Virus record (IMG/VR): IMGVR_UViG_3300027806_000037
Location: 1 to 64,000 of that record
Source: a virus
Lineage: Duplodnaviria > Heunggongvirae > Uroviricota > Caudoviricetes
Direction: 5' to 3' (one strand)
Length of the DNA stretch: 64,000 bases
The notes beneath the pieces are model-generated. The model saw only the letters and a list, made by a program, of their open reading frames with translations, was not told the origin of the DNA and searched no databases. Both the position numbers and the translations under genes were made by a program. Below, piece by piece: positions 1-16,018 of the stretch (the stretch's first letter is position 1; each line of letters begins with the position of its first letter).

Positions 1-13
1 TAAACATGAATTA

Positions 14-439
14 TTGTTTTTAGAACAATATCCACATGAAGCATATGAAAGTGAGAAGAAAAAAATTATTGAAGATTTAGAATTTTGTGAAAAAGAAATT
101 AGTAAAAGGTTAGAAAATAAAAAATTAGTTGATAAAATTTTTAAAGAAGCAAATGAGTGGGTAGTACCAACTGATGAACATATTGGTTTTAGAAATTTTG
201 TTATGGAACAGCTTTCATATGCTCAAAAAGATTGTGATATAAGTTATTATGACGAAAGAATTTCTGAATTAAAAAATCGACTTGAAACAATGTCCTTGGA
301 TGTTTTTTTAAAAGAAAAATATGATGAATTGAAAAAAGATTTTGAATATTCTTCCAAAAAATTAAAGGAACAAGAAGAAAACTGTGAAGAGTCGAATATT
401 TGGATTGAAGCTTTATTTAAAAGTTTGGGTGAACTATAA
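14..439 (+). CDS. hypothetical K/E-rich protein (TTG start in track; may begin upstream of window)
   Basis: 141-aa ORF, no recognisable motif. Confidence 0.35.
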   Translation: MFLEQYPHEAYESEKKKIIEDLEFCEKEISKRLENKKLVDKIFKEANEWVVPTDEHIGFRNFVMEQLSYAQKDCDISYYDERISELKNRLETMSLDVFLKEKYDELKKDFEYSSKKLKEQEENCEESNIWIEALFKSLGEL

Positions 440-470
440 AATAATTATAGATAAAAATATTTTAATTAAA

Positions 471-845
471 ATGGAATTTATTGAATATAATGGTAAGAGC
501 GAGGATTTTCCGGGATCTTGGGATCACGTTCTAGCTGATGATGTAAAAACGTATGTTCCGGTTGTGGAACGATTACATTGGGCATATGGATACCCAATCA
601 TAAGAAATATTTTTTATATGTTAGGCACAAATAAAAATCGTGATATATACTATGTTTATCCGGATTTTGGTAACAAATATTATATATACGCATCTGAGGA
701 TTTAAATAAGGCTAAGTTCTTTGTTGAAAATTTTATAGTAAAGGGGTTAAATAACGAATTACTAACATCAGAGACACGTATATTTGATTTACAAGAATAT
801 ACGCAAAAATTAAGTCAAATCATTAAAATTGTTGAAGAAAAATGA
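471..845 (+). CDS. hypothetical protein
   Basis: ATG at about 471 (MEFIEYNGK) inside track ORF 384..845; stop overlaps next start (ATGA). Confidence 0.45.
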   Translation: MEFIEYNGKSEDFPGSWDHVLADDVKTYVPVVERLHWAYGYPIIRNIFYMLGTNKNRDIYYVYPDFGNKYYIYASEDLNKAKFFVENFIVKGLNNELLTSETRIFDLQEYTQKLSQIIKIVEEK

Positions 846-1351
846 ATATAGTAAATAAAGCAAGGGAGTTTGCAATCAAAGCACACAATGCTGTGAATCA
901 AAAATATGATAATCAACCTTATGAGGTTCATCTTAAAATGGTCAGTGAATTTGCAAGTCAGTTCCAATATCTCCTTAAAGATGATGATTTGGAAATAGCG
1001 CAAGCATCCGCATGGTTACACGACACACTAGAGGATATTTACTTTATAAGTTACAACGACATCAAAAAGGAATTCGGTGAGCAAATTGCAGAAGCTGTCT
1101 ATGCATTAACGAATGAAAAAGGTAGGACGCGAAAAGACCGAGCGAATGCTAAATACTATCAGGGTATTCGCGATATTCCTGTTGCTAGATTCGTTAAGGT
1201 CTGCGATAGACTTGCAAATGCGAGTTATTCTATAAGTAATGATAGTTCAATGGTGAATGCGTATCGTAAAGAAAATGAGGAATTTAATCGTGAGTTATAT
1301 TGCGATGAATTAAAACCCATGTTTGATTATTTAAACCAAATATTAAAATAA
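842..1351 (+). CDS. HD-domain phosphohydrolase, RelA/SpoT-type (p)ppGpp hydrolase fold (small alarmone hydrolase-like)
   Basis: Motifs AIKAHNAVNQKYDNQPYEVHL ... AWLHDTLED ... FGEQIAEAVYALTNEK match the SpoT/Mesh1 HD hydrolase signature (A..AH..Q.R.SGEPYI.H; HD in LHDxxED; FG..VA.LV.GVT). Confidence 0.7.
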   Translation: MNIVNKAREFAIKAHNAVNQKYDNQPYEVHLKMVSEFASQFQYLLKDDDLEIAQASAWLHDTLEDIYFISYNDIKKEFGEQIAEAVYALTNEKGRTRKDRANAKYYQGIRDIPVARFVKVCDRLANASYSISNDSSMVNAYRKENEEFNRELYCDELKPMFDYLNQILK

Positions 1352-1359
1352 AATGTTTA

Positions 1360-1722
1360 ATGAAAGTAATAATAGCGGGTAGTAGAGACTTTAATGATTA
1401 TGAATTATTAAAGAAAACTTGCGATAAAATTTTAATAAATCAAAAGGATATCGAGATAGTGAGTGGAGGCGCTAAAGGTGCCGATGCTCTTGGTGAACGA
1501 TATGCAAATGAAAGGAGATATGGTCTTAAGATTTTTTTGGCGAATTGGGATGAATATAAAAAAAAAGCTGGTTATCTTCGAAATATTAAAATGTCTGAAT
1601 ATGCTGACGCTCTAATAGCATTTTGGGATGGCGAATCTAGAGGGACGAAACATATGATTGATATAGTAACTGAAAAGGGATTAAAAACTAGAATAATTAG
1701 ATATGGAATACAAAATAAATAA
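1360..1722 (+). CDS. SLOG-superfamily (DUF2493/YpsA-like) putative nucleotide-binding protein
   Basis: VIIAGSRDF ... VSGGAKGADALGERYA ... LIAFWDGESRGT pattern typical of the phage-associated DUF2493 Rossmann-like family. Confidence 0.55.
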   Translation: MKVIIAGSRDFNDYELLKKTCDKILINQKDIEIVSGGAKGADALGERYANERRYGLKIFLANWDEYKKKAGYLRNIKMSEYADALIAFWDGESRGTKHMIDIVTEKGLKTRIIRYGIQNK

Positions 1723-2242
1723 AAGTTTCTTCATAGATAGAGATAAAAATTCCCATTATTATTTAATTAATAATGAATTTCGTGAGCAATGGGAAGAATG
1801 GAATAATTTAAGTGAAGATGATGAAAGAAGTTGGAATATTCCAGATTTTGTAATTCCGGTTAATAAACATCCAAAACATTTAACATTTTCAGAACCAAAA
1901 CTTGGTGATGAATATTTTGATGATGGTCCAATCAGAGAATTTATTAATGATAATGGTGAGGGTTTCTCAGTTTATCCAGAATATAATCATAGTGGTGGAT
2001 TTTATTTTTCTTGGTTAGAAAACGGTGAAAGATGGTCAACAAAATATGGTTGGCAAGATATCATTGATATTATTAATGAACACGATGAAATGCTAAATAG
2101 AAAACCTGTTGCATGGTATGTACAAAGAACAGGAGGTCTTACAGAAAGGGAAAGAAATATTAAATACGGTCCATTTTTTAAGGAATCTGAAGCAGATGGG
2201 TGGGTTGACGAAAATCACACTAAAATTCCGTTATTTAGATAA
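1703..2242 (+). CDS. hypothetical protein
   Basis: 179-aa ORF, ATG start, W/Y-rich, no motif. Confidence 0.5.
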   Translation: MEYKINKSFFIDRDKNSHYYLINNEFREQWEEWNNLSEDDERSWNIPDFVIPVNKHPKHLTFSEPKLGDEYFDDGPIREFINDNGEGFSVYPEYNHSGGFYFSWLENGERWSTKYGWQDIIDIINEHDEMLNRKPVAWYVQRTGGLTERERNIKYGPFFKESEADGWVDENHTKIPLFR

Positions 2243-2612
2243 TACTATCTAAAAATATATTTGCAACCTCGTTATAAAATAAATTAGCGATTTCATCATC
2301 TTCCATATTCTTATCTTTGATTTCATCATAACCCAAAGCATACATTAAATGCTCAATATCATAATAAGAATACGGTAAACTAATCCAACTTGGTAAACCT
2401 TGCAAATACTCAATAAATGCTCGTTTCATACCACGTCTTTTGATTTCAAAATCATATTCATTCACGAATATTTCCAAACCGGTTTTTAATGGATTTTTTG
2501 TTGGTCTAATATCATACCCATCAAAATCTATATTATCCACAATAAAATCTTTTAAATTATTTTGTCTATCCGATTCCTTTAAAAGTTTTTTAATTTTTGT
2601 TCTTATATTCAT
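2235..2612 (-). CDS. hypothetical protein (one of few plausible minus-strand genes)
   Basis: 125-aa ORF, convergent with 1703..2242, fills a gap otherwise free of + ORFs. Confidence 0.4.
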   Translation of the reverse strand: MNIRTKIKKLLKESDRQNNLKDFIVDNIDFDGYDIRPTKNPLKTGLEIFVNEYDFEIKRRGMKRAFIEYLQGLPSWISLPYSYYDIEHLMYALGYDEIKDKNMEDDEIANLFYNEVANIFLDSII

Positions 2613-2668
2613 TTTATTTTTTATATATAAATACTTATGTTTATAAAAACATTCTTTCGCTTAAAAAT

Positions 2669-3739
2669 ATGCAAATAATAAATAACAAATTAAAATATAT
2701 ATTTATAATAATTTTTGGTTTTGTTTTCAACATTAAAACTTTCTCACAAACAGATTTGGTATTTTATGATTTTAATGTATGTAATAATAATCCTGATTAT
2801 ATTTTTCCATATTTTAATGCAACACCTGTGACAACAACTTTACCACTTGGTTCGGGATGTAGTAGCATTAATGATGGATGTGCAGCCGGATGCCCCGATT
2901 TGATTTGTACAAATAACAACACATCCTTTATAACAAAATCTTGGACTAGTCCAGCAATAAATCTCGCTCATTATTATGAGTTTACAATATCAACATATCC
3001 AAATGTTTCGTTTTATTTAAATCAATTAAGTTTTAGTTTCAGAAGATCATCCACTGGACCCACCAACCTTGCTGTATATATGAATGGTGTTTCTCAATCA
3101 ATATTTAATTCAACATCAACAAGTTGCGTTTCACTTGGTGCGGGAATTAATCAATTGGTGACTGGTTCAGCAAATTTTAAAATTTATTTTTGGGGTGGCT
3201 CGGTCGATGGGACAGTAAGAATTGATAATGTGAAACTCACACATTCGTTTACAACTTTACCAATTGAGTTAGTTTATTTTAATGTGAGGTCAATTGAAAA
3301 TAAAATTAATTTAGAGTGGTTGACATCATCAGAAGTGGATAATTCGCATTTTGAAATTGAAAAGTCATTTGATGCGTTTAATTTCTATAAAATAGCCAAT
3401 ATAATTTCAATTGGTTACTCACAACAAAATATATTGTATAATTATACAGATTTTAATGTAAATAATGATAAAATAATATATTATCGCTTAAAACAAGTTG
3501 ATTATGATGGTGATTATACATATTCACCAATAGTTTCAGTTAATAATAATTTTGATGCAATTTTAATACAAAATGGATTGGTTTCATTAACCAACCAACA
3601 TGAATACAAAATAGCTAATATTTGTGATATCTCTGGGAGATTTATTCATGATTTGAATAATGGATCAGTTCAGCTAAATGCTGGAATATATTTATTAAGA
3701 TTAAACGATAAAACCAAAAAAATTGTTTTAAACAATTAA
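2669..3739 (+). CDS. secreted protein with T9SS (Por) C-terminal sorting domain
   Basis: N-terminal signal peptide (IFIIIFGFVFNIKTFSQ); C-terminal about 70 aa (ILIQNGLVSL...ISGRFIHDL...LNAGIYLLRLNDKTKKIVLNN) matches the T9SS type A CTD pattern. Confidence 0.55.
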   Translation: MQIINNKLKYIFIIIFGFVFNIKTFSQTDLVFYDFNVCNNNPDYIFPYFNATPVTTTLPLGSGCSSINDGCAAGCPDLICTNNNTSFITKSWTSPAINLAHYYEFTISTYPNVSFYLNQLSFSFRRSSTGPTNLAVYMNGVSQSIFNSTSTSCVSLGAGINQLVTGSANFKIYFWGGSVDGTVRIDNVKLTHSFTTLPIELVYFNVRSIENKINLEWLTSSEVDNSHFEIEKSFDAFNFYKIANIISIGYSQQNILYNYTDFNVNNDKIIYYRLKQVDYDGDYTYSPIVSVNNNFDAILIQNGLVSLTNQHEYKIANICDISGRFIHDLNNGSVQLNAGIYLLRLNDKTKKIVLNN

Positions 3740-3787
3740 TTTGTTTTTCTAAACATTTTTATTTATATTTGCATATAAATACAAAAA

Positions 3788-4462
3788 ATGTTAATTACAA
3801 TAATATCTGATACCCACACAAAACATCATCACATTCCGAAAGAACATCTTCCGGGTGGAGACATGATTATTCATTGTGGTGATATTTCTTCGCGTGGTTA
3901 TAGAGAAGAGGTTAGATTGTTCCTTGAATGGTTTACCGATTTAGATTCCTATACACACAAAGTATTCATTGCTGGTAATCACGATTTCTTCTTTGAAGAT
4001 AACCCACTCCAATCAAAGGAATTGGTTCAAGAATATTCAAATATAATTTATCTTCAGGATAATATGGTTGAAATTGAGGGGGTCAAAATTTATGGCTCAC
4101 CTTGGCAACCAGAATTTTATAATTGGGCGTTTAATCTTCCAAGAAACGGTGAAAAACTTAAAGAAAAATGGAAAGCAATACCGGAGAATATTGATATATT
4201 AATTACACATGGTCCACCGTTTGGTTGTTTGGACAAAACAATTCAGGGACAATCCGTTGGATGCGAAATTTTGACCGAAGAAATTAAAAGAATTAATCCA
4301 ATAATTCATTGTTTTGGTCATATTCATTATTCTTATGGTTATATGCAAAGAGACAATATTAATTTTATTAATGCGTGTTCTCTTGGTGAAAATTATGTTT
4401 ATCAAAACAAACCTTTGAACATTGATTTGGATATGTCAAATAGAATGATTAGCTTTGTCTAA
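3788..4462 (+). CDS. calcineurin-like metallophosphoesterase
   Basis: DTH ... GDISSRG ... GNHD ... GHIH metal-binding motif order of the MPP superfamily. Confidence 0.75.
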   Translation: MLITIISDTHTKHHHIPKEHLPGGDMIIHCGDISSRGYREEVRLFLEWFTDLDSYTHKVFIAGNHDFFFEDNPLQSKELVQEYSNIIYLQDNMVEIEGVKIYGSPWQPEFYNWAFNLPRNGEKLKEKWKAIPENIDILITHGPPFGCLDKTIQGQSVGCEILTEEIKRINPIIHCFGHIHYSYGYMQRDNINFINACSLGENYVYQNKPLNIDLDMSNRMISFV

Positions 4463-4473
4463 ACAAAAAACAA

Positions 4474-4620
4474 ATGAAAAAATTAATTTTTGCACTTATT
4501 ATTGTTATTTTTGCATCTTCCTGTGCATCACAAAGATGTCATGGTGTTGGAAACACAACACATGCACTTAAAGCGAAAAAGCAGCAACAACAAAGAACGT
4601 TTTCACAATTTCCTTTCTAA
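4474..4620 (+). CDS. small putative lipoprotein (48 aa, not in track)
   Basis: MKKLIFALIIVIFASSC lipobox-like signal; Q-rich tail. Confidence 0.3.
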   Translation: MKKLIFALIIVIFASSCASQRCHGVGNTTHALKAKKQQQQRTFSQFPF

Positions 4621-5195
4621 TGTTTAAACATAGTTTTTCATATTATTTTAGAAATACTTGGGAATTTATCCGATGGGATATTCCAAGATTTTTTAAGAAC
4701 ATTTGGAGGTTCAGGAGAGAACTTAAATCCTTTGGTGGTTGGGACCGGTATTATACTATCTCAATGCTAAGAAGGTCTTTGATTACACAGAAAGAATCAA
4801 TGGAAAAGTTCAGCAATGAATATGAACCAACACTTAGATTGAAACTTTATTATATGAAGAGAGCAATTTATTTAACGGATTGCATTCTCGAAGATAAATT
4901 TCATGATATGGCGGAAGCTAGACTTGGTTATAAAACAGTTTTTAGAGATTTTAAATTTGAACCAATTGAAGGTTCTACCAGTAAAAGATTGGTTTTTGAT
5001 GAAGAAAGCGAAGAAGAAAGACAAGCGAACTGGAAAATTTTTGAGGAATCTTCAAAAATTGAGAAAGAAGTTTGGAATGAACTTTTTGATATTTTAAAAG
5101 GCGATATCTATAATGTTGATATGTATACCGAACATAAAGGTAAAGCATATGAAGATGTTCACAATGGTAAGGGTTTAATTAATTGGTGGTACTAA
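4620..5195 (+). CDS. hypothetical protein
   Basis: 191-aa ORF. Confidence 0.5.
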   Translation: MFKHSFSYYFRNTWEFIRWDIPRFFKNIWRFRRELKSFGGWDRYYTISMLRRSLITQKESMEKFSNEYEPTLRLKLYYMKRAIYLTDCILEDKFHDMAEARLGYKTVFRDFKFEPIEGSTSKRLVFDEESEEERQANWKIFEESSKIEKEVWNELFDILKGDIYNVDMYTEHKGKAYEDVHNGKGLINWWY

Positions 5196-5207
5196 AAAAA
5201 TAAAAAC

Positions 5208-5522
5208 ATGTCAGGAGGTTATTTTGATTATAAAAAATATCAACTTAATGATATCATTGATGATATTGAAAGAGTTTTAAATAGACAAGGAAAAGAAAGA
5301 CCAAAAGAAGAACGTTGGTGTAGTGATGAATATCTTGAAAAATATCCAGAAGAAAAATATTATCCAACCTATTCAAAAGAAATTCAAGAAAAATTGCAAG
5401 AAGCAATTAAATCATTAACAATTGCAAGAATTTATGTACAAAGAGTTGATTGGTTTTTATCGGGTGATGATGGCGATGAATCATTCTTGAGAGAATTGTC
5501 TGAAGAATTGGATAAGGTATAG
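5208..5522 (+). CDS. hypothetical acidic protein
   Basis: 104-aa ORF. Confidence 0.45.
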   Translation: MSGGYFDYKKYQLNDIIDDIERVLNRQGKERPKEERWCSDEYLEKYPEEKYYPTYSKEIQEKLQEAIKSLTIARIYVQRVDWFLSGDDGDESFLRELSEELDKV

Positions 5523-5545
5523 ATATTTATTGAAAAATAAAAATC

Positions 5546-5809
5546 ATGAGTACTGAAATGAGAAAACTCATAAATGAGTTTAATAACATTAACGAATCAA
5601 GTTTAAATAGAATATATAGTCATATTCAAAAATATGAATGCGCAATTATAACAGCGTTTAAAGGTAAGTTAACTAACTGTAGAACCGAAAATGATAATGA
5701 AAAAAGAATATATATTAGACAGAACAAGGATAGAAATAAACTTTTAAAATCAGCTTTATTATTTTTTGGATATCAAATTACAAAAGTAAAAGGTACTTAT
5801 GTTGAATAA
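5546..5809 (+). CDS. hypothetical protein
   Basis: 87-aa ORF. Confidence 0.4.
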   Translation: MSTEMRKLINEFNNINESSLNRIYSHIQKYECAIITAFKGKLTNCRTENDNEKRIYIRQNKDRNKLLKSALLFFGYQITKVKGTYVE

Positions 5810-5888
5810 ACCACAAACCCGCCACTTGCATATACACGCTGTTATAAGCAGGTGCGGTATTATAGCACAGAACTTGATTTGAAAGACG

Positions 5889-5937
5889 AAACCTTTTTCT
5901 TTTCTTTTTGTGTGGTGGGAAAATAAAATTTAAAATA
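5889..5937 (+). promoter_or_regulatory. conserved about 50-nt upstream element AACCTTTTTCTTTTCTTTTTGTGTGGTGGGAAAATAAAATTTAAAA (copy 1, upstream of IleRS-like gene)
   Basis: near-identical copy at about 10684..10748 upstream of another gene. Confidence 0.4.
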
Positions 5938-7911
5938 ATGAATAAAGTATTATTACCAAAAGAAGAAATTACACAGAAGTTAGATAGAGATAAACTTACT
6001 TTATTGAACGCTTCTATCAAAGATTATGTGAACAACTTGTATGAAAATTCAAATGATGAATACATTATACAAGATGGTGAACCATACGCCAATGGAGAAT
6101 TACATTTGGGACATTTTTTAAACAAAACCTTGAAAGATTTTGTTGTAAAATATTACTTAACAAAAGGTAAGAAAGTTAGGGTTTCATTTGGTTGGGACTG
6201 TCATGGTTTACCCATTGAAAATAAAGCAAAAGAAATGAGTGGTGATTTAATTCAAAATGCTAAATTAGTCGCAACCAAATATTGTGATATTCAAAATAAA
6301 ACTCTTGAACTTTTCGGGATTTATCCAACTGAAGGTAGGTTTAAAACTATGGATATTGATTTTATAGAAAGAGAATTATATATATACCACCAACTACTAA
6401 ATGCGGGTCTAATTCTTAAAAAGAATAAGCCTACTTGGTACTCACCAACATTAAAAACAGTATTGGCTAACTCAGAAATTGAATATAAAAAAATAGAAGA
6501 TGAATCTTTGTATTTTCTATTCAACTCTGATAGTTTTAAATTACTTGTTTGGACAACAACAGAATGGACTGTAAACGGAAATCAGGCAGTATGTTTAAGT
6601 AATAATATAAAATATGTTAAAACTGTTGACAATATTATTTGTAGTGAAAGTTTTGCTATTGAAAATAATTTAGATTATGATTTGTTTGATGTGAGTAATA
6701 TTAAGTCATATCATAACCACAATGGAGATTTATGTCCAATTATTTATGATGACTACGTTTCAGATGATAAAACAGGTATAGTACATCTTTGCGGTGGACA
6801 CGGTGATGAAGATTATCGAATTTTAATGGATAATAACATAACCCCCAAAAATGTGTGCGATAAAATCGGCTTATTAAAACACATAGAAGATTTTAAAATT
6901 GATGAAAAGTTTGTATATAAACGTGAAATTTACACACACGATTATCCAATTGATTGGCGTGAAGGGAATAAGGTGTATAAAGTATTAACGGAACAAACGT
7001 ATCTTGATTTTGATTTAAACAAAATAAAGACTTGTTTAAAAGAAATAAAGTTATCATCAAAAGACAGAAATCGTTTATCAACGACAATATTTTCACGCAA
7101 AGATTGGTGTATTTCAAGACAAAGAAAATGGGGTGTTAAAATACCTAATAGTAATGATATATTGGATGTTTGGTTTGATAGTGGTTCTACATTTATGATG
7201 TATGATAAACCTGCCGATATATACATTGAAGGTTCAGACCAACACAGAGGGTGGTTTCAAAGTTCGATTATATTAGCATCAATGATTGGTCGAGTACCAA
7301 CAAAAAGAATAATAACACACGGATTTATTGTTGATAACACATTAGAAAAACTATCAAAATCAAAAGGTAATGGCGGAAGTTTGGAAAAGCTGTATGAAAC
7401 ATATAACCCTGATGTATTAAGACTATGGGTTTTACTGTCAGATTTTAAAAACGATATTGTCTTTTCGGAAGATTCATTAAAAAACTCTGGTAAACAATAT
7501 TTTAAAATAAGAAACTTTCTCCGTTATTTATTTAATAATCTATATATATATGATTATGATGAAACAAAAGTTGATGAAAATATTTTTTTTAAAGTAAAAG
7601 AGTTGGAAAATAAATTTGATTTACTTGTCAATGAATTTGATTTGAATAAAGCAGTAAGGGGTTTTGTTGAATTTATAAACTATTATTCATCTTTGTTGAC
7701 GGAGGATATTAAAAATGAATTTTATGAATCTGACACAAATTCCAATATGAGAATTAAATATGAAACAGAGTTTTACTATGTTTTAAAACACTTAAATAAA
7801 CTACTTTTTTCGATTTTACCATTTCTTTCTATGGAAATAAAAAAAGCGTGGGAAGAAAAAAGAAAAGAAAAAGATTTACATGTAGGGACTATATTTGGAA
7901 ACGAGATGTAG
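5938..7911 (+). CDS. ileS: isoleucyl-tRNA synthetase-like class I aaRS, shortened (about 657 aa)
   Basis: PYANGELHLGHFLNKTLKDFVVKYY (HIGH region), GWDCHGLPIE, WTTTEWT, DWCISRQRKWGVKIP and KLSKSKGN (KMSKS) are IleRS signatures. Protein is about 250-400 aa shorter than canonical IleRS: reduced CP1, C-terminal Zn domain missing. Confidence 0.8.
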   Translation: MNKVLLPKEEITQKLDRDKLTLLNASIKDYVNNLYENSNDEYIIQDGEPYANGELHLGHFLNKTLKDFVVKYYLTKGKKVRVSFGWDCHGLPIENKAKEMSGDLIQNAKLVATKYCDIQNKTLELFGIYPTEGRFKTMDIDFIERELYIYHQLLNAGLILKKNKPTWYSPTLKTVLANSEIEYKKIEDESLYFLFNSDSFKLLVWTTTEWTVNGNQAVCLSNNIKYVKTVDNIICSESFAIENNLDYDLFDVSNIKSYHNHNGDLCPIIYDDYVSDDKTGIVHLCGGHGDEDYRILMDNNITPKNVCDKIGLLKHIEDFKIDEKFVYKREIYTHDYPIDWREGNKVYKVLTEQTYLDFDLNKIKTCLKEIKLSSKDRNRLSTTIFSRKDWCISRQRKWGVKIPNSNDILDVWFDSGSTFMMYDKPADIYIEGSDQHRGWFQSSIILASMIGRVPTKRIITHGFIVDNTLEKLSKSKGNGGSLEKLYETYNPDVLRLWVLLSDFKNDIVFSEDSLKNSGKQYFKIRNFLRYLFNNLYIYDYDETKVDENIFFKVKELENKFDLLVNEFDLNKAVRGFVEFINYYSSLLTEDIKNEFYESDTNSNMRIKYETEFYYVLKHLNKLLFSILPFLSMEIKKAWEEKRKEKDLHVGTIFGNEM

Positions 7912-7916
7912 CACTT

Positions 7917-8040
7917 GCTTATAACGGTTGCAAATATAAAACGTTTTAAACTAAACTTAAATTGAAAAACAGTATATAAATATAAACCAACAATAAATTT
8001 GGAACGCTGAAATAAATGTTTTATATTTGTTGTTATAAAC
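7917..8040. repeat. palindromic element (PE family: ATAACGGTTG-arm ... arm-TTGTTATAA)
   Basis: cttataacggttgcaaatataaaacgtttt ... aaatgttttatatttgttgttataa inverted arms. Confidence 0.5.
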
Positions 8041-8058
8041 ACGTTAAATTATTTTATT

Positions 8059-8337
8059 ATGAAAACATATAATGTAAAGTATGATGTTGGACAAGAAGTA
8101 TATATACTTTTATCCAAAAAAATATTTAAAAGTAAAATTGAAAAGATTAGAATTGTTCATGGGGTACCTTATATCAAAGGCGAAACAATGGAACAAATGG
8201 ATGGAATTGAAATTGATTACTTGGTTGTAGTTAATGAACAATTCTATCCTTCAGGTGGACATTTATCTAGTTATGATTGGTATAAACAGGATGATATTTT
8301 TTTGGATAAAGATGAACTGTTGCGGAAAATAATTTAA
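8059..8337 (+). CDS. hypothetical protein (PE-bracketed cassette ORF)
   Basis: 92-aa ORF between PE elements. Confidence 0.45.
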   Translation: MKTYNVKYDVGQEVYILLSKKIFKSKIEKIRIVHGVPYIKGETMEQMDGIEIDYLVVVNEQFYPSGGHLSSYDWYKQDDIFLDKDELLRKII

Positions 8338-8342
8338 TTGTT

Positions 8343-8397
8343 TATAACGTCTGATGATAAACAATCGTTTTAATGTGTTTTATTTGCTGTTATAAGT
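8343..8397. repeat. PE-family palindromic element (GATGATAAACAA...TTGTTTATC hairpin variant)
   Basis: ataacgtctgatgataaacaatcgttttaatgtgttttatttgctgttataag; same hairpin type recurs at about 12979..13040. Confidence 0.45.
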
Positions 8398-8419
8398 ATG
8401 TAATTTACAATTTATACCT

Positions 8420-8665
8420 ATGAAAAAAACGAAAAGAAAAATACATATTGGAAATGACCTATGGTTTTATTGGGTTGGTTCTGGTAGATGGGGTGAGGTA
8501 ACTCATGTAACGATATGTTCACCAGATGAACAATATTATAAAATAGATGCAAGTGATGTTGCAAGTAGTGAAATGTATGTTGGTGCGGAAGGGTCATTTC
8601 CAACACAAATATTACCGTCAAAAGTTAAAGAATATATTGAAAATAAAATAATAAATAAATTTTAA
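8420..8665 (+). CDS. hypothetical protein (cassette ORF)
   Basis: 81-aa ORF. Confidence 0.45.
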   Translation: MKKTKRKIHIGNDLWFYWVGSGRWGEVTHVTICSPDEQYYKIDASDVASSEMYVGAEGSFPTQILPSKVKEYIENKIINKF

Positions 8666-8673
8666 ATTATTAC

Positions 8674-8772
8674 TTATAACGGTTGGGTGTATGAGAAGGT
8701 TTGCTTAGATGAACTTTCAAATTAACCACTGAACTTTATAGCAAACTTTCTTATACACCTTGTTATGTGTAG
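8674..8772. repeat. PE-family palindromic element
   Basis: ttataacggttgggtgtatgagaaggtttgc ... gcaaactttcttatacaccttgttatgtgtagg; about 27-nt inverted arms, about 45-nt loop. Confidence 0.6.
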
Positions 8773-8836
8773 GTGTGGTTAATTAAGGTAGAATGTTAAA
8801 TAGTAGAAATGAACAAAAATTTTAAAAGAAAAATAT

Positions 8837-9247
8837 ATGAATTATAAACAAAAAATTACAACTATCAATTATTTTGAAAAGGTGGTTAAAATTTCTCTAA
8901 CAAGAGAAGAGTGGAATTCATCTGGAACTTGGGTAGAGTCAATGATGAAAAAAGGTTGTGAAAGACTGAGTAAGGATTGGTTTGAAGATTTACATCACTT
9001 AGTTATGCGACCAATAAGTGACGAAATAAACTTTTCTGGTAAAAACTATACTTATGATGTGGATATAACATTTGATATACCAAGAGAATTACTGAGAATG
9101 TTTGTATATTCAATCGGTCAAATTGCTTATGATTTTGATGTTAAAGGTATAACTTCGGTTACTGCTCAAAATATAGTGGGAAAAATAAACAAACAATTAA
9201 AAGAACAACTACCAAATGATGATAAATGGTTTCATTATGGATTTTGA
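8837..9247 (+). CDS. hypothetical protein (cassette ORF)
   Basis: 136-aa ORF. Flanks (gtggttaattaaggtagaatgtt...aaaaattttaaaagaaaaat upstream; tttcttttaaaattttcaaccgaaatgttgattagaacgatg...cttacacataacgt downstream) are repeated around ORF 13110..13334. Confidence 0.5.
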   Translation: MNYKQKITTINYFEKVVKISLTREEWNSSGTWVESMMKKGCERLSKDWFEDLHHLVMRPISDEINFSGKNYTYDVDITFDIPRELLRMFVYSIGQIAYDFDVKGITSVTAQNIVGKINKQLKEQLPNDDKWFHYGF

Positions 9248-9312
9248 TTTTTCTTTTAAAATTTTCAACCGAAATGTTGATTAGAACGATGAACGGAACG
9301 CTTACACATAAC
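9245..9312. repeat. about 70-bp direct repeat, copy 1 (TTTCTTTTAAAATTTT...GTTGATTAGAACGATG..GGAAC.CTTACACATAACGT)
   Basis: second copy at about 13325..13392. Confidence 0.55.
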
Positions 9313-9399
9313 GTATATCGGCTAAACGCAGTATTTAAAAACTTTTGCGAGGGAAATAATTAATCAATTAAATAATAATAATTAAAAACAAAAAGTAAA

Positions 9400-9723
9400 A
9401 TGGAAATCAAAACAAAATTTGACGTAAACAATTTGGTGAAAAGAAAATTCGACACCAATTCAAAGAACCAGATGAGTGCTTTGGAAGTAATGGAAGTGAT
9501 TGCACAAACTTGCTATGCAGGAACGCAGGTATTTTATTTGTGCAAACATGTAATTGCTCAAAAGGAATTTGTAGAAAAGTATTCTGAAAAAGGAGAATTT
9601 ACTTGGGTGATTGCTCACAGTATTTCACAAGAAGAAAATCAGGCAGGATGGAGAAAATACCGTGAAGATGAATTGATAGAAGCACCAAAAGAAGTGATTG
9701 ACATTATACTTGGTAATTCTTAA
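9400..9723 (+). CDS. hypothetical protein (cassette ORF)
   Basis: 107-aa ORF. Confidence 0.45.
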   Translation: MEIKTKFDVNNLVKRKFDTNSKNQMSALEVMEVIAQTCYAGTQVFYLCKHVIAQKEFVEKYSEKGEFTWVIAHSISQEENQAGWRKYREDELIEAPKEVIDIILGNS

Positions 9724-9767
9724 TTGTTCAATTGTGCGGTGGGAAAGTTTTTAAATATTGTCGTTTT

Positions 9768-9852
9768 AGCCGTTGTTATGCGAAGGTGTGGCAACTCCAA
9801 AATTTCAAATTATAGACAAAACTTTCTTGCCACACTTTTGCATAACGGTTGT
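9768..9852. repeat. PE-family palindromic element (inverted orientation)
   Basis: ccgttgttatgcgaaggtgtggcaa ... ttgccacacttttgcataacggttg. Confidence 0.55.
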
Positions 9853-9955
9853 AAATATGAGAAGTAAATTTTACCTATAAAAATTAGATAAATCAAAATT
9901 TATTTCTTATATTTGTTGTTATAAGTATGTAAAACAAACTAAATAATAATTAAAT

Positions 9956-10186
9956 ATGAAAATTGAAGGTCAAATTACGCTAGATGGTATATTATATACA
10001 CTGTTTATTTTATTCTGTTTATTTTTAACAATAGGTAGTTCTATTAGTGGGTGGTGGTATTTATCACACTTTGGATTCAGTGTAAAACAATTTTTGGTAA
10101 ATATTTTAGTTTCGTCTTCAACTTTATTTATGATCTGGATGATTTTCACTAAAATATTTATTATAAAAATAAACAGAATAAAGTAG
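9956..10186 (+). CDS. small membrane protein (cassette ORF)
   Basis: 76-aa ORF with two hydrophobic segments. Confidence 0.45.
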   Translation: MKIEGQITLDGILYTLFILFCLFLTIGSSISGWWYLSHFGFSVKQFLVNILVSSSTLFMIWMIFTKIFIIKINRIK

Positions 10187-10197
10187 TTTGTTTTATT

Positions 10198-10337
10198 ACT
10201 TATAACGGTTGAGTATAACCGAAGGTGGGGATTAGAAGTGCCGAACCCTGACTTACCTACAAAAGTAAATTAGAAGCACAATATCTGAATGTTGGAACTA
10301 CACCCCACTTTTGGTTATACTTTGTTAGGTGTATGTA
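10198..10337. repeat. PE-family palindromic element
   Basis: ttataacggttgagtataaccgaaggtgggg ... ccccacttttggttatactttgttaggtg. Confidence 0.55.
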
Positions 10338-10350
10338 AATTTTACGGATT

Positions 10351-10539
10351 ATGAAAGATATACAACTGTTAATTGATATGAAAGTTTCTTTAGGTAGGGA
10401 AACATTATTATTTCAGATACTTGGTAAGTATGGTGATAAAATACCAATGGAACTTCAAGAAGAACTACGAAAATTGGCAGAAGAAGAAAGAAACTTTGGT
10501 GAAATGAAGAAACGAACTTTGAAGGGTGTGTTGGAGTAA
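10351..10539 (+). CDS. hypothetical protein (cassette ORF)
   Basis: 62-aa ORF. Confidence 0.4.
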   Translation: MKDIQLLIDMKVSLGRETLLFQILGKYGDKIPMELQEELRKLAEEERNFGEMKKRTLKGVLE

Positions 10540-10548
10540 AATTTATTA

Positions 10549-10640
10549 CACCTAACGGTTGGGTGTATGAAACGTAGCCACGCACAATACTTAATATAAA
10601 CCACAGACCTTAATTGGCTATGTTTTATACACGATGTTAG
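10549..10640. repeat. PE-family palindromic element
   Basis: cctaacggttgggtgtatgaaacgtagcc ... ggctatgttttatacacgatgttagc. Confidence 0.55.
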
Positions 10641-10683
10641 CAGTAGTACGGATTTAAACTACAAATGCTCATTCGGAGAACTG

Positions 10684-10748
10684 AACCTTTTTCTTTTCTT
10701 TTTTGTGGGTTGGACAAAATAAATTTGAAAAATTTAAAAATAAATAAT
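10684..10748 (+). promoter_or_regulatory. second copy of conserved about 50-nt upstream element (AACCTTTTTCTTTTCTTTTTTGTGGGTTGGACAAAATAAATTTGAAAAATTTAAAA)
   Basis: matches 5889..5937. Confidence 0.4.
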
Positions 10749-10982
10749 ATGAAATTAGAAACAATTGTAAAAGTTACACCAGATGGTGGAGTTGAAATTC
10801 CTTCTGATATGAAAGTTGGAACTGGATTGATGAATATGGTAAAAGAATTACGTGATAATGAATGGAGAACATTTGAACATCACGATAATTGGATTAAAAA
10901 CGAACATTATCCAAATCCAACATTTGAACAACAATTTGATACAGGTAATGCTTATAAAGAAATGTTAAAAACTAAAATTTAA
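10749..10982 (+). CDS. hypothetical protein
   Basis: ATG (MKLETIVKV) inside track ORF 10665..10982. Confidence 0.45.
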   Translation: MKLETIVKVTPDGGVEIPSDMKVGTGLMNMVKELRDNEWRTFEHHDNWIKNEHYPNPTFEQQFDTGNAYKEMLKTKI

Positions 10983-10986
10983 AACT

Positions 10987-11586
10987 ATGATGAAAATTGA
11001 AGCAAAAAAAGACGGTAAAGGAAACATTGTAATATCGGAAGATTCCTTTGAAATGATACTGGCTTGTTTAGATAATCAAAAATTTGTTGGTGAACAGCCA
11101 CAAAATGGTGATTCGCTTTCGGTAGGCGAAGACAACTATTGGAAAGGACAAGAAGATATTCAAAACACTATTGACCATTATAATAGAGAATGTAGAAAAA
11201 TATTACATCAAAAATATGTTTTAAGAACAGAATCTGATGGTTATTTTCTTGCTAAAAAATATGAACATCAAACAGAAGATACTGAATGGACTGGTGAAGA
11301 TGTTGGATTAGTGTATGAACTATTCAAAGATACAAGAATAATTTATAATGAAACAAGAGATTTATTACCATTAGATGGTAGTGAAGAAATTAAGGAAGGA
11401 AGTACTCCAATTGGTAAAACAAAAGATGGGTGGATTGCAGTTGAACAAGAATCAAGACCTTGGTTAATTGAAAGAGCATTGGGATATGATGGTGATTATT
11501 TAACAATTTCTGAAGATGGCAGTAAGAATAGACCTTGGAAACAAGATGAAATTCGAAAAATTATAAACATATTTAATAATAAATAA
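10987..11586 (+). CDS. hypothetical protein
   Basis: 199-aa ORF. Confidence 0.5.
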   Translation: MMKIEAKKDGKGNIVISEDSFEMILACLDNQKFVGEQPQNGDSLSVGEDNYWKGQEDIQNTIDHYNRECRKILHQKYVLRTESDGYFLAKKYEHQTEDTEWTGEDVGLVYELFKDTRIIYNETRDLLPLDGSEEIKEGSTPIGKTKDGWIAVEQESRPWLIERALGYDGDYLTISEDGSKNRPWKQDEIRKIINIFNNK

Positions 11587-11587
11587 A

Positions 11588-11995
11588 ATGGGAATATTTG
11601 ATTGTTTAATAGATAAAGACAATGGAAAACCAAAATCTGATATGGAATATATTTACAGATTAGATATGGTTTGGATACCTAACAAACTTGAAAGTAAACC
11701 AATTAAAATTGGAACGATAATGAATAATGTTATTCAACGAGATAATGGCAGTTATGAATTTACTTGTAAAGAAACTGGTGAAAGATTACAAGCAACTTAT
11801 TCTTGGGCTTTGGCTGAAAACACACCAGAAAATGTTGAAAGAATAAAAATATATGATGATGAATATTTAAAATTCAAAGAATACGAAAGAAAAATAAATT
11901 CTTTGAGAAATAATATTATTACTCTTAAAGAGCGTGGAGAAAAAAGAAAAGAAAAAGATATTGCAGATGAAACTCAAATCGGAGAACAAATGTAG
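11588..11995 (+). CDS. hypothetical protein
   Basis: 135-aa ORF. Confidence 0.5.
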   Translation: MGIFDCLIDKDNGKPKSDMEYIYRLDMVWIPNKLESKPIKIGTIMNNVIQRDNGSYEFTCKETGERLQATYSWALAENTPENVERIKIYDDEYLKFKEYERKINSLRNNIITLKERGEKRKEKDIADETQIGEQM

Positions 11996-12000
11996 TATTA

Positions 12001-12062
12001 CACATAACGGTTCGGCGGGTTGCCGTTGTGCATTCAATAACGGCAACCCGACTGTTATGCGG
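12001..12062. repeat. PE-family palindromic element (compact)
   Basis: cataacggttcggcgggttgccgttgtgcattcaataacggcaacccgactgttatgcg. Confidence 0.55.
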
Positions 12063-12100
12063 GGTCATTCTTTTTCACTCGGTAAAAAGCAAAAGGTACA

Positions 12101-12403
12101 ATGGCAAAAAGGAAGTTAGGCCCATCGAGCGGCAAGTGCTCCAAGTGCGGAGGTCACATCAGCATCAATCCACCAAGACCGTGCCGCCGCTGCTCAGGCG
12201 AAAAGCCTCAGGCGAGCTCGGAAAAGAAAGAGCGCGTGTTCACCGAGAGCGAGGTGAAGGCGATGGTGCGAGAGATTCTCGCAGAACAGGAACGACTGCA
12301 TATAAGCGATGGATCCGGAGGACACGATATTGTGTGGGCGGTCGGGATCGGAGAGGTCGAGGCGGTGTTTAAAGCGCACGGCATTGTTCTCGATCCCGCA
12401 TAA
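12101..12403 (+). CDS. hypothetical protein encoded by a GC-rich (about 58% GC) cassette, likely foreign
   Basis: 100-aa ORF MAKRKLGPSSGKCSKCGGH...; its stop codon lies inside the ATAACGGTTG box of the next PE. Composition contrasts sharply with the about 30% GC surroundings. Confidence 0.5.
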   Translation: MAKRKLGPSSGKCSKCGGHISINPPRPCRRCSGEKPQASSEKKERVFTESEVKAMVREILAEQERLHISDGSGGHDIVWAVGIGEVEAVFKAHGIVLDPA

Positions 12404-12530
12404 CGGTTGACGGTATGAAAAGTTGGGGATTAAAAGATATAAACTTTCGCACCGATACAATGATAATTAATAGTACAAACCTTCGGGAACGCACACACGC
12501 CCCAATTTTTTATACCGTGTGTTATGCCCC
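12398..12530. repeat. PE-family palindromic element
   Basis: gcataacggttgacggtatgaaaagttgggg ... ccccaattttttataccgtgtgttatgcccc. Confidence 0.55.
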
Positions 12531-12549
12531 GTTTTTATCCAATTTTTTA

Positions 12550-12971
12550 TGTTACAAGACGAATTAGCATTACAATATAAATACAAAAAACTTCCATCAG
12601 AATTATCTGACAAGGTAAGAAACCAATATTTGTCTGAAATACCAAAATGTTTGAATATCAATGGTGATTCTGAATTTGAGTTAAAAACAGCAAACGGTAC
12701 AATAATTTCAAAAGGATATGAAAGAATTGTAATTGGAGATTATGGAGCGTTTATTGAATTTAACAGAAATCAAGTTATTGACGAAAATATTTGTATTCAA
12801 AAGGGGCAAGAATATAGAATTAACGATGAAAAATATAGTAAGAATGTGAAATATTTTTGGTTGACTGCAAAAGATTCATCGTGTATAAAGATATATTTAC
12901 AACAGAAAACGGTATCATACGCAGATTATAAACCAAATATGTATTACGTGTCTCCATTTGAGGTTTTTTAA
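12550..12971 (+). CDS. hypothetical protein (cassette ORF)
   Basis: ATG (MLQDELALQYKY) inside track ORF 12519..12971. Confidence 0.45.
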
Positions 12972-12978
12972 ATGGGGA

Positions 12979-13040
12979 ATAACGTCCGATGATAAACAAT
13001 CGTTTTAATGTTGTTTATCATTTGTTATGTGTAGGTGTGG
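12979..13040. repeat. PE-family element (ATGATAAACAA hairpin variant) plus shared right flank
   Basis: ataacgtccgatgataaacaatcgttttaatgttgtttatcatttgttatgtgtaggtgtgg. Confidence 0.5.
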
Positions 13041-13109
13041 ATTATTAAGGTGGAATGTTTAATCGGAGAACTGAACAAAAATTTTAAAAGAAAAATTAAT
13101 ATATAGATT

Positions 13110-13334
13110 ATGGGAAACATAGTTAAAAAATTTGAAAACTTTAAAGATGGGTTATACGTCACATGTAAAAACGCACCAGAAGATAATTACCAACTTCATA
13201 ATAAAAAGGATTATTTGGTTATTAAATATGATAACCAACCGTATGGTGTTGGACGAGTAACTATATTTAACCCTTCAAGTAGAAAGGAAGAAACATATCC
13301 TAAAACTATGTTTAGTGAACCATTTAACAAATAA
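13110..13334 (+). CDS. hypothetical protein (cassette ORF)
   Basis: 74-aa ORF flanked by the same modules as 8837..9247. Confidence 0.45.
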   Translation: MGNIVKKFENFKDGLYVTCKNAPEDNYQLHNKKDYLVIKYDNQPYGVGRVTIFNPSSRKEETYPKTMFSEPFNK

Positions 13335-13392
13335 TTTTTCTTTTAAAATTTTAAACATAGATGTTGATTAGAACGATGGGTGGAACACTTAC
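13325..13392. repeat. about 70-bp direct repeat, copy 2
   Basis: tttcttttaaaattttaaacatagatgttgattagaacgatgggtggaacacttacacataacgt. Confidence 0.55.
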
Positions 13393-13476
13393 ACATAACG
13401 TTTCGCAGCTTGGCGAGGTGCGGGATTTACAGCACTAAAGACGATTAGAATTACAAATTTTTAAATAAAAAACAAT

Positions 13477-13758
13477 ATGTCAAACGAAGTACAAAACCCC
13501 GCATCTTGCCAAACTGCTGTTATATGCCGCCTTTTTGATTTGGGAAGGAAAGGGTTAACATGGGATTGGTCAAAATTGGAACTGAAAAAACAATACTTTA
13601 TCAGTCGTGAAGATGTTTTGAATATGAATATGCTTTGGCAACTTGCACAAGGTGGTATAACTGAACAAGCACAATCTTTGAATGCAGAAGTATTGATTTG
13701 GGAAGATGTCATAAAAAACGGATGGTACTTGTTGCTGAGACCGCAAGGTGGCATATAA
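13477..13758 (+). CDS. hypothetical protein (cassette ORF, moderately GC-enriched)
   Basis: 93-aa ORF; stop inside an ATAACGGTTTGCG half-PE. Confidence 0.45.
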   Translation: MSNEVQNPASCQTAVICRLFDLGRKGLTWDWSKLELKKQYFISREDVLNMNMLWQLAQGGITEQAQSLNAEVLIWEDVIKNGWYLLLRPQGGI

Positions 13759-13790
13759 CGGTTTGCGTATTGCTGACGTTGCCAATTTGA
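13746..13790. repeat. PE half-element (left box only)
   Basis: catataacggtttgcgtattgctgacgttgcc. Confidence 0.35.
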
Positions 13791-13825
13791 AACACAAATG
13801 TTGAATTAAAAACAAAAAAATAAAT

Positions 13826-14044
13826 ATGAAAATCAGAGTTGAAGTTAAAGACGAAGCTGGCAATGTTCAGCAATACGTTGTTAGGCGCAGTTACTTGGTC
13901 AAATTTGTTGACCCGAAGAAAGAGTATCCTGTTACCTACACAATTAAACACGATGGCACAAGAGTAAATGAACCTGCAATGCTCAAAGGCGAAGATTTAA
14001 CCGAAAATCAAATTGCACAACTTTTCTCGAAGGGTTTGTTGTAA
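13826..14044 (+). CDS. hypothetical protein (cassette ORF)
   Basis: 72-aa ORF. Confidence 0.45.
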   Translation: MKIRVEVKDEAGNVQQYVVRRSYLVKFVDPKKEYPVTYTIKHDGTRVNEPAMLKGEDLTENQIAQLFSKGLL

Positions 14045-14046
14045 TT

Positions 14047-14150
14047 GCGCCTAACGATTGGGTGTATATGTAGTTTTTTATTTGGAAATGTCAAAACTTA
14101 TTCGTACCTTTGTAAAAAAAATTACATATACACCTTGTTATGTATAGTTT
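14047..14150. repeat. PE-family palindromic element
   Basis: cctaacgattgggtgtatatgtag ... ttacatatacaccttgttatgtatag. Confidence 0.55.
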
Positions 14151-14174
14151 ATTCACAAATTAAAATAAAAGTTT

Positions 14175-14381
14175 ATGAAACAACCAAAAATTAAAATAAC
14201 CGACATTCACGGTAAAGACTGGGGTATTAAAAAAGTAAAAACACTTCATTGGAATTTGGACGGAAAATTAAACACAATTCAAGTTGATTTTTCTGGAACT
14301 ATGGATATGTATGATTTAGATGATGAAGGCGTTTTTACTAATCCACATGGTAATATGAAAGGCGTTATCATTTGGGAATAA
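14175..14381 (+). CDS. hypothetical protein (last cassette ORF before recombinase)
   Basis: 68-aa ORF. Confidence 0.45.
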   Translation: MKQPKIKITDIHGKDWGIKKVKTLHWNLDGKLNTIQVDFSGTMDMYDLDDEGVFTNPHGNMKGVIIWE

Positions 14382-14392
14382 ATTATACATAA

Positions 14393-14486
14393 CTAGTATA
14401 TATAAGTAAGTATAATCTAACCACTTAAAAATAAAGGACTTGAATAATAAAATTATTAAGATTTGTGAAGAAAAGTTTATATATTT
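14393..14486 (+). repeat. 94-bp perfect direct repeat, copy A (covers promoter region and first 15 codons of the tyrosine recombinase)
   Basis: ctagtatatataagtaagtataatctaaccacttaaaaataaaggacttgaataataaaattattaagatttgtgaagaaaagtttatatattt, identical at 43982..44075. Confidence 0.8.
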
Positions 14487-15240: not shown

Positions 15241-15256
15241 AAAGTTTTAGTTATCT

Positions 15257-15556
15257 TTGTCAAAAATAACAAAAATGAAAAAAGAAGTTTTTGAAATTAT
15301 CATCTGGAATGATACATTTGGAAAAGTGGTTGATGAAAGATTTGTTGATGAAACACAATTTTCGATTTTTTTGAAAGCGATTAAGGGTTGCTTGGATACA
15401 ACACAAGATTTTAGTTATTTTAATGGAAAAAACTTTTTAATCCACATTCCTTTTGCAGTTTTGAAAAATAGCGTTATCTTTACCAAAGAAAATGAAATTG
15501 GTGTAAGTGAAATCATTAAATCAAAAGCTGAAGCTCTAACAACTAAAACAAAATAA
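15257..15556 (+). CDS. hypothetical protein
   Basis: 99-aa ORF. Confidence 0.45.
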   Translation: MSKITKMKKEVFEIIIWNDTFGKVVDERFVDETQFSIFLKAIKGCLDTTQDFSYFNGKNFLIHIPFAVLKNSVIFTKENEIGVSEIIKSKAEALTTKTK

Positions 15557-15560
15557 TAAA

Positions 15561-15710: not shown

Positions 15711-15714
15711 AAAA

Positions 15715-15957: not shown

Positions 15958-16018
15958 TTTCTTGGTTTTTTAAACCAAGTGGTGGAGCGACCTGCAAGCG
16001 TTTGGTCCCAAATATAAA

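Follow-up and report, generated by a model that had tools for sequence, protein, structure and literature searches.

Isoleucyl-tRNA synthetase (IleRS) is the textbook case in which tRNA identity depends on one wobble nucleotide (N34), read by an appended C-terminal domain. In S. aureus IleRS, the zinc-binding domain reads G34 via Trp890 and Arg888, and A35 is the only base that the helical anticodon-binding domain (ARD1) reads specifically (PMC11685878). Remodelling of the C-terminal region in IleRS evolution trades stringency against turnover (bioRxiv 10.64898/2026.02.03.703510), and CP3, a subdomain whose definition we take from C. albicans IleRS, varies in topology and forms a three-helix unit in the S. 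aureus enzyme (PMC7191050). Huge phages carry up to 15 aminoacyl-tRNA synthetase (aaRS) genes (Al-Shayeb et al. 2020, PMC7162821). Here we describe a minimal, type-1-like IleRS gene located at 5938..7911 on the plus strand of a 64,000-nucleotide stretch of Caudoviricetes DNA (IMG/VR record IMGVR_UViG_3300027806_000037, positions 1 to 64,000; hereafter the window, to which all coordinates without a contig label refer). The gene encodes 657 amino acids (aa) followed by a TAG stop, and its product lacks both CP3 and the C-terminal N34-reading module while apparently retaining a complete editing site.

That the protein is an IleRS is unambiguous. The open reading frame (ORF) at 5908..7911 (+) constitutes a single intact IleRS reading frame, with translation starting at the ATG at 5938, which is the start chosen by gene callers on public contigs and common to all homologues. 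The product matches Pfam tRNA-synt_1 (E = 1e-65) and scores 385 bits against the NCBIfam ileS model TIGR00392 (E = 6e-115), compared with 168 bits for valS, 113 for leuS and 111 for metG. It matches the PDB IleRS 8wnf with E = 3e-81, and the top PDB sequence matches are the IleRS1 enzymes of H. pylori, S. aureus and P. megaterium, with scores of 277 (H. pylori), 252 and 245 (P. megaterium) bits as opposed to 160 bits for IleRS2. An AlphaFold2 model built from a 73-sequence alignment is confident and compact (pLDDT 93.1, pTM 0.87), and the top Foldseek matches of that model are IleRS structures (TM 0.79-0.82, normalised to the query). The protein carries the signatures of a class Ia synthetase and its Rossmann (HUP) fold. 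Translating the coordinates recovers every motif listed in a preliminary description of the locus: HLGH at 6103-6114 (aa 56-59), GWDCHGLPIE, WTTTEWT at 6550-6570, DWCISRQRKWGVKIP at 7102-7146 and KLSKS at 7348-7362 (aa 471-475). All 68 members of the family have HxGH, and K/R-x-x-K-S is present in all KMSKS variants listed. Judged by alignment, the pocket motifs that set IleRS apart from ValRS, LeuRS and MetRS (GWDCHGLP; EGxDQHRGWFQSS) are in place, and D87, Q435 and W439 are among the isoleucine-pocket residues that are invariant across 73 short and full-length sequences. As that description had it, the catalytic core is intact.

These comparisons also bear on the suggestion, made in the same description, that the gene might represent an antibiotic-resistance type of IleRS, in this case a phage-borne bypass of a mupirocin-like inhibitor. 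The only precedent is a general one, namely that second IleRS copies (IleRS2, MupA, MupB) give mupirocin resistance (PMC10485003; bioRxiv 10.64898/2026.02.03.703510). The 657-aa protein, however, is closest to the mupirocin-sensitive type-1 catalytic domain, as the scores above attest, and reaches only 148 bits against MupB and 128 bits against MupA, where the cutoffs are 1900. The hyper-resistance motif [A/G]xHH is found in none of the family members, with the canonical form present throughout. We therefore regard a resistance function as very improbable.

Might the gene instead be a pseudogene or a piece of a normal ileS of ~900 aa, or owe its length to a frameshift or an assembly error? It is certainly short, at 657 aa compared with ~908 aa in the nearest full-length relatives (908 aa in P0097, which serves as our reference), and its ileS score lies under the equivalog cutoff. 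This reading is already refuted. The identical 657-aa protein is encoded on 19 public contigs that come from different samples and were independently assembled, and clustering of its homologues at 90% identity gives ~68 groups, with lengths of 626-699 aa and 47-100% identity to the 657-aa protein, that share its architecture and its end point. Reading through the TAG at 7909-7911 adds only 18 codons before a TGA is encountered, and IleRS-like coding potential is absent from every downstream frame and from the rest of the window. The ratio of non-synonymous to synonymous substitution rates (dN/dS), estimated from three alleles of one subgroup of the family (P0015), is 0.035-0.075 for the gene as a whole, and the structural model is, as noted, a confident one. 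We also rejected the idea that stop-codon recoding hides a longer ORF: there is no ORF-length signal under reassignment of TGA, TAG or TAA, and all three stops are in use. The preliminary description was thus right to see a naturally minimal enzyme of about 657 aa that is not part of a longer ORF, and its estimates of motif spacing hold up as well, with 415 aa between HIGH and KMSKS (536 aa in P0097) and 182 aa after KMSKS (304 in P0097).

To locate the deletions, we placed 68 short homologues in an alignment with full-length IleRS1, in which 252 residues of P0097 have no counterpart in the short form. The largest missing block (128 aa; P0097 782-908) is the C-terminal end past the last helix of the anticodon-binding domain, i.e. 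the junction domain (ARD2) and the CxxC...CxxC zinc-binding domain. The CP3 subdomain, which lies between WCISRQRKWGVKIP and DVWFDSG, accounts for a further 53 aa (P0097 471-523); the alignments place the junction left by its deletion, P403-N-S-N-D407, at 7144..7158 (+), and a CP3 hidden Markov model (HMM) matches only a viral family of ~738 aa, not the 657-aa family. The remainder is made up of ~33 aa trimmed from five loops of the editing domain and of losses of 10, 10, 9 and 6 aa from other loops; a 10-aa loop deletion follows aa 102, in the first catalytic half. Much of the shortened HIGH-KMSKS spacing consequently derives from the loss of CP3 rather than from a loss of editing sequence. 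What is retained, all on the plus strand, comprises the first half of the Rossmann/HUP catalytic domain with HLGH and GWDCHGLPIE (6058..6435; aa 41-166), the CP core and editing domain (6436..6957; aa 167-340), the CP2 helix pair and DWCISRQRKWGVKIP strand (6958..7149; aa 341-404, with model helices at 360-368 and 374-385), the segment that holds KLSKS (7156..7467), and ARD1 (7468..7872; aa 511-645). The CP2/DWCISRQRKWGVKIP region is the most conserved of the family, with a mean pairwise identity of 0.71.

The preliminary description held that the CP1 editing domain was largely missing. This part of it has to be abandoned. The CP core and editing domain measure 174 aa, compared with 210 aa in the full-length enzyme, and include the T-rich peptide WTTTEWTVNGNQA (6550-6588) along with KTGIVHLCGGHGDEDY (6769-6816). 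Across the 73 short and full-length sequences T206 and T207 are invariant, T208 and T211 are conserved in >90%, and N215, H283 and D292 vary little or not at all. We take the T-rich peptide, N215, H283 and D292 to be the counterparts of E. coli T241-243/T246, N250, H333 and D342, respectively, in which case the editing domain is kept with all known catalytic residues. WTTTEWT, counted earlier as a core motif, is actually the editing motif, and the intact T-rich peptide is the very observation that the description had named as grounds for giving up its claim. Selection on the CP core and editing domain is strong (dN/dS 0.04-0.11, from the same three alleles).

The companion claim, that the C-terminal anticodon and zinc-binding domains were largely missing, is correct for one part of the region and wrong for the other. 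The junction and zinc-binding domains are indeed gone: an HMM search for them gives no match, the tail contains neither C..C nor CxxC pairs, and the protein ends 12 residues past ARD1, where canonical enzymes go on into these domains. The helical ARD1, by contrast, is kept. It scores 31.3 bits against Pfam Anticodon_1 (PF08264; cutoff 25.1), aligns to residues 626-780 of S. aureus IleRS, and is under selection comparable to that on the editing domain (dN/dS 0.02-0.12). R525, N526, Y596 and R605 are invariant and, going by motif spacing, look equivalent to the residues that contact A35 in other IleRS. Since an editing site acts on aminoacyl-tRNA, purifying selection on both this site and ARD1 suggests that tRNA is a substrate of the enzyme.

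The 657-aa family is monophyletic with 100% bootstrap support in a neighbour-joining tree. IleRS2, chosen as outgroup, did not give a clean root in this tree, and support for deep nodes is 4-51%, so that a single loss and multiple losses of the C-terminal region are not separated. Contigs that encode family members reach 602,809, 533,056 and 518,834 bp, the IMG/VR class of the relatives is viral, and one member (L011) comes from a genome with 54% G+C. Truncation at the same boundary, ending right past the helical domain, also occurs in other viral lineages. A clade of ~735-742 aa, to which a 735-aa homologue in the 634,780-bp uncultured-phage record LR745206.1 belongs, is without the C-terminal module and has retained CP3, and several more representatives at 50% identity (695-770 aa) have the same truncation. 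P0256 (635 aa, ~35% identical) is a separate minimal lineage that is without both CP3 and the C-terminal module. Here the editing residues have decayed: the T-rich peptide reads TTL, and the Asn, His and Asp have been replaced by Cys, Gln and Gln, so that P0256 may be a natural IleRS with defective editing. That the 657-aa family has kept its editing site is therefore not automatic and reflects selection. Many other huge-phage IleRS are full length (841-958 aa) and have a zinc-binding domain, and the PHROG that matches is an unannotated profile of 903 positions.

We noted several features beside IleRS genes in these other lineages. On huge-phage contigs, tmRNA genes are found a few kb from IleRS genes of the 738-742-aa type, and suppressor-like tRNA(CUA) genes (labelled 'Pyl' by ARAGORN) are found on contigs with full-length IleRS (for the two kinds of gene together: L013 18161-18553, L015 7187-7571, L022 18242-18319 and L023 9450-9523). 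The tRNA(CUA) genes suggest stop-codon recoding in those full-length-IleRS phages.

Which tRNAs might the 657-aa enzyme charge? The window itself offers a candidate. At 35091..35693 (+) it encodes a 200-aa protein that consists of the N-domain of lysidine synthetase (TilS PP-loop) only; this protein matches Pfam PF01171 (E = 3e-33) and TIGR02432 (126.4 bits, cutoff 93.6), reaches 60.9 bits against the full-length TilS equivalog (cutoff 606), and has no C-terminal tRNA-binding domains. Homologues of this ~200-aa TilS fall into at least 910 clusters (E <= 1e-10), some of them on contigs of 368-462 kb; a scan of IMG/VR with the single TilS sequence returned one distant match only. A tRNA with anticodon CAU, called by both ARAGORN and Rfam, follows 27 nt downstream at 35720..35794 (+). 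It is not of the initiator type and has C4-G69, U5.G68 and A73. In a relative (L078, a 386-kb contig) a 60%-identical TilS is found 61 nt from a tRNA(CAU) with C4-G69/C5-G68, presumably the pairs in the acceptor stem on which E. coli TilS relies. Most likely the tRNA(CAU) is tRNAIle2; it would be a substrate first of TilS and then of IleRS, and the 200-aa TilS would be the partner in AUA decoding. The window has just one more tRNA, a tRNA-Arg(UCU) at 31870-31942, and codon usage matches this tRNA set, with isoleucine making up 8.7% of codons, ATA 24% of isoleucine codons and AGA 49% of arginine codons. In LR745206.1, an 18-gene tRNA array (L001 11834-13941) that includes Ile(GAU), Ile(UAU) and CAU lies 3.6 kb downstream of the 735-aa IleRS gene.

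On balance, the gene is probably a phage-encoded, streamlined descendant of a bacterial type-1 IleRS that supports AUA- and Ile-rich translation with altered or relaxed wobble recognition. Sequence and structure show that all parts needed to activate isoleucine (HIGH, KMSKS, GWDCHGLP and the QHRGWF pocket) have been kept, along with those that hold the acceptor end of the tRNA and proofread Val-tRNAIle (CP core, editing domain and CP2 helices). During infection, the enzyme would charge host tRNAIle(GAU) and, once the phage TilS has made lysidine, the phage tRNA(CAU), thereby sustaining an AT-rich phage proteome that is rich in isoleucine and AUA codons. Instead of the canonical N34 read-out, tRNA selection would have to depend on A35/U36 together with the acceptor stem and body of the tRNA. 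As the zinc-binding module is missing, discrimination at position 34 would either be relaxed or be achieved differently, by a new mechanism inside ARD1. Relaxed or altered N34 specificity is plausible and would fit the TilS/tRNA(CAU) pair.

A stronger version of this proposal, to which we attach only tentative belief, is that the family represents a natural IleRS that both aminoacylates and proofreads tRNAIle in spite of having no N34-reading module. Two variants can be imagined. If the enzyme were blind to N34, a single protein could serve the GAU, lysidine-CAU and UAU isoacceptors, and tRNAIle would have to be discriminated from tRNAMet via other identity elements or through rapid modification by TilS. 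Alternatively, a novel N34 read-out might reside inside the helical domain, for example in the family-specific F-Y-E motif at aa 595-597.

Several observations weigh against streamlined but functional charging. To begin with, the ileS equivalog cutoff of TIGR00392 is not reached (385.4 versus 621.4 bits), although the matched segments align over their whole length, so that the shortfall can be put down to the absence of CP3 and of the C-terminal domains. At aa 48 (6079-6081), moreover, the protein reads GEPYANG in place of the near-universal GPPYANG, as do 18 of the 68 family members (the others have P or C). We take aa 48 to be the first Pro of the isoleucine-binding pocket, T. thermophilus Pro46, and a Glu at this position might alter amino-acid fine specificity or inhibitor specificity. 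TilS is encoded 27 kb away from IleRS. tRNA-Ile(UAU) genes are also found near full-length phage IleRS (L022, L041), which led us to reject a link between loss of the zinc-binding domain and tRNA-Ile(UAU). Engineered C-terminally truncated IleRS of the eukaryote type activate isoleucine and do not transfer it to tRNA (PMC11685878); by analogy, the 657-aa protein might be unable to aminoacylate alone. Finally, IleRS is reported to tell tRNAIle from tRNAMet solely through N34 (PMC11685878), and an N34-blind enzyme risks forming Ile-tRNAMet.

That truncated IleRS keep amino-acid activation and lose transfer (PMC11685878) invites the idea that the phage protein does not charge tRNA at all. It might instead be an activation-only enzyme, serving as a maker of Ile-AMP or Ap4A, as an isoleucine sensor, or as a regulator or decoy that binds or sequesters tRNAIle during host takeover; non-translational roles are well known for aaRS paralogues (review: PMC9437257). 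If adenylate formation were the only function, however, neither the editing domain nor ARD1 would be needed. Post-transfer editing has aminoacyl-tRNA as its only substrate, and still the residues of the site are invariant and its dN/dS is low; selection is just as strong on ARD1, where the RN and R residues are conserved. The tRNA(CAU) and TilS genes are, in addition, found on the same window as the IleRS gene. An activation-only function fits poorly with the conservation of the editing site and ARD1, and we judge it unlikely.

A further possibility is that specificity stays canonical because a phage or host protein supplies in trans the grip on the anticodon arm and the N34 read-out. This would accommodate the fact that canonical IleRS loses tRNA charging without its C-terminal domains (PMC11685878). 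Huge phage genomes of 500-600 kb have ample room for a partner gene, and most ORFs in the window are unannotated. Yet searches by HMM and tblastn for ARD2 and the zinc-binding domain, which covered the 64-kb window and the ±10 kb around 12 related loci, gave no match beyond chance (E > 0.1). A split gene or detached C-terminal domain was rejected on similar grounds, the last ~135-160 aa of full-length IleRS1 giving only chance matches (E > 0.1; tblastn and HMM) in the window and the 12 loci. Nor is there a conserved neighbouring partner gene: none is common to the subgroups, and no neighbour is conserved between P0001-type and P0015-type loci, ClpS being located next to the gene in the P0015 subgroup only. 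Furthermore, at least two well-supported viral clades are without the module, each of which would need its own partner. We give a partner in trans little credence, and continue to favour a streamlined enzyme with altered or relaxed wobble recognition.

Turning to the neighbourhood of these genes, ClpS, an N-degron adaptor, begins 4-6 nt past IleRS in the P0015 subgroup (L002 11921-12202; L081 8042-8323; L082 3919-4197), with an IS605 OrfB/TnpB-like gene ~2.6 kb beyond ClpS in L002. In a ~550-bp GC-rich stretch of the window at 11995-12549, no gene is called on any of the public contigs, and Rfam gave no match; an ORF within it (12101-12403) carries CxxC...CxxC, and its match to the IleRS zinc-binding domain is at chance level. 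Directly upstream of IleRS, the 128-nt leader (5806-5937) contains an imperfect hairpin at ~5819-5857, a second stem and a T-rich run. It folds modestly better than shuffled sequences (z = -2.1), and we found no Rfam match to a T-box or other leader at gathering threshold or E <= 1, and no excess of terminators or promoters.

The window has a G+C content of 28%, nearly all of its genes are on the plus strand, and most are small unannotated ORFs. IleRS is found in what looks like an RNA-maintenance neighbourhood (window 1-18182 and L004 1-2483): a T4 Rnl1-like RNA ligase that, as L004 shows, lies shortly before position 1 of the window, an HD protein (842-1351), a metallophosphatase (3788-4462), a NUDIX protein near the IleRS gene, a tyrosine integrase (14440-15240) and a DRB0094-type RNA ligase (17202-18182). 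Pfam, PHROGs and NCBIfam searches on ~40 further window ORFs gave almost nothing, with no capsid or terminase gene seen, and megablast (25 kb) found no near-identical phage in GenBank; the assignment to phage is based on gene content and on how IMG/VR classifies the relatives. Further along, the stretch at 30500-32662 is GC-rich (~0.41) and ORF-poor. Within it, a match to the group I intron model falls short of the threshold at 31588-31776 (RF00028; 42 versus gathering 50 bits, E = 7e-9 in a 1.8-kb search), and past this match and tRNA-Arg(UCU) comes a PD-(D/E)XK endonuclease ORF at 32009-32662. The stretch may be an intron/homing-endonuclease element or another structured RNA.

Why should a short viral IleRS be of wider concern? 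Removing the C-terminal region from canonical IleRS abolishes tRNA charging, so that a large and conserved viral family without this module and without CP3, but with the editing site, amounts to a natural experiment. It allows one to ask what a minimal functional, proofreading IleRS looks like, how tRNAIle can be told from tRNAMet in the absence of the usual reader, and how huge phages rebuild AUA/Ile decoding for AT-rich genomes, with tRNAIle2, a minimal TilS and a minimal IleRS. If charging without an N34 reader were true, the view that IleRS cannot charge tRNA without its C-terminal domains would be overturned, and the family would hold the smallest known editing-competent IleRS. The protein would also be of use as a compact scaffold for synthetase engineering, and surveys that are restricted to cellular genomes and require the C-terminal domain miss part of aaRS architectural diversity. 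The 2026 survey is a case in point: it covered ~97,000 IleRS from GTDB and EukProt only and required a type-specific C-terminal domain (10.64898/2026.02.03.703510), so that the 657-aa family was undetectable there. In the literature on phage, jumbo-phage or megaphage IleRS we found no description of a minimal IleRS architecture.

How, then, does the 657-aa protein compare with systems that have been described? With the bacterial IleRS1 enzymes (S. aureus 1FFY/1QU2, H. pylori 8WNF, P. megaterium 8C9E) it shares the catalytic fold and motifs, the isoleucine pocket, the CP core, the editing residues, CP2 and ARD1, at ~26-35% identity; it differs from them in having trimmed loops and in being without CP3 (53 aa) and without ARD2 and the treble-clef zinc-binding domain (128 aa). 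The huge-phage aaRS of Al-Shayeb et al. (PMC7162821) are likewise encoded in phage-like genomes of several hundred kb that carry aaRS, tRNAs, and tRNA-modification and repair genes. In the passages searched, that study covers gene presence and phylogeny, not domain architecture. Phage-encoded aaRS were already known, the minimal architecture without CP3 and the C-terminal module being the part for which we found no description.

The engineered truncated IleRS of C. albicans, S. cerevisiae and T. thermophilus also end at or soon after the helical anticodon-binding domain. These constructs are artificial and reported to be inactive in tRNA charging, whereas the 657-aa family is natural and under strong purifying selection. 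The loss of INS and the exchange of ARD3 for the zinc-binding domain in cellular IleRS (Modrusan et al. 2026, preprint) represent a similar trimming of C-terminal tRNA-binding elements, for which a trade of stringency for turnover has been proposed. Unlike the 657-aa family, however, those cellular cases always keep ARD2 and a terminal N34-reading domain.

A different kind of likeness is to monomeric core MetRS. In this class Ia enzyme, the anticodon is recognised by the helical domain alone, with no extra C-terminal domains; MetRS has no editing domain, and reads C34 by means of a specific Trp. The 657-aa protein would resemble it in having a helical-domain-only anticodon end. By sequence, its catalytic domain would be classed as an IleRS1-type HUP-1 domain with canonical HIGH, and the feature that defines IleRS1, ARD2 plus the zinc-binding domain, has no counterpart in it (P0097 782-908). 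The 657-aa protein should hence be filed as a minimal variant derived from IleRS1 rather than as a canonical member.

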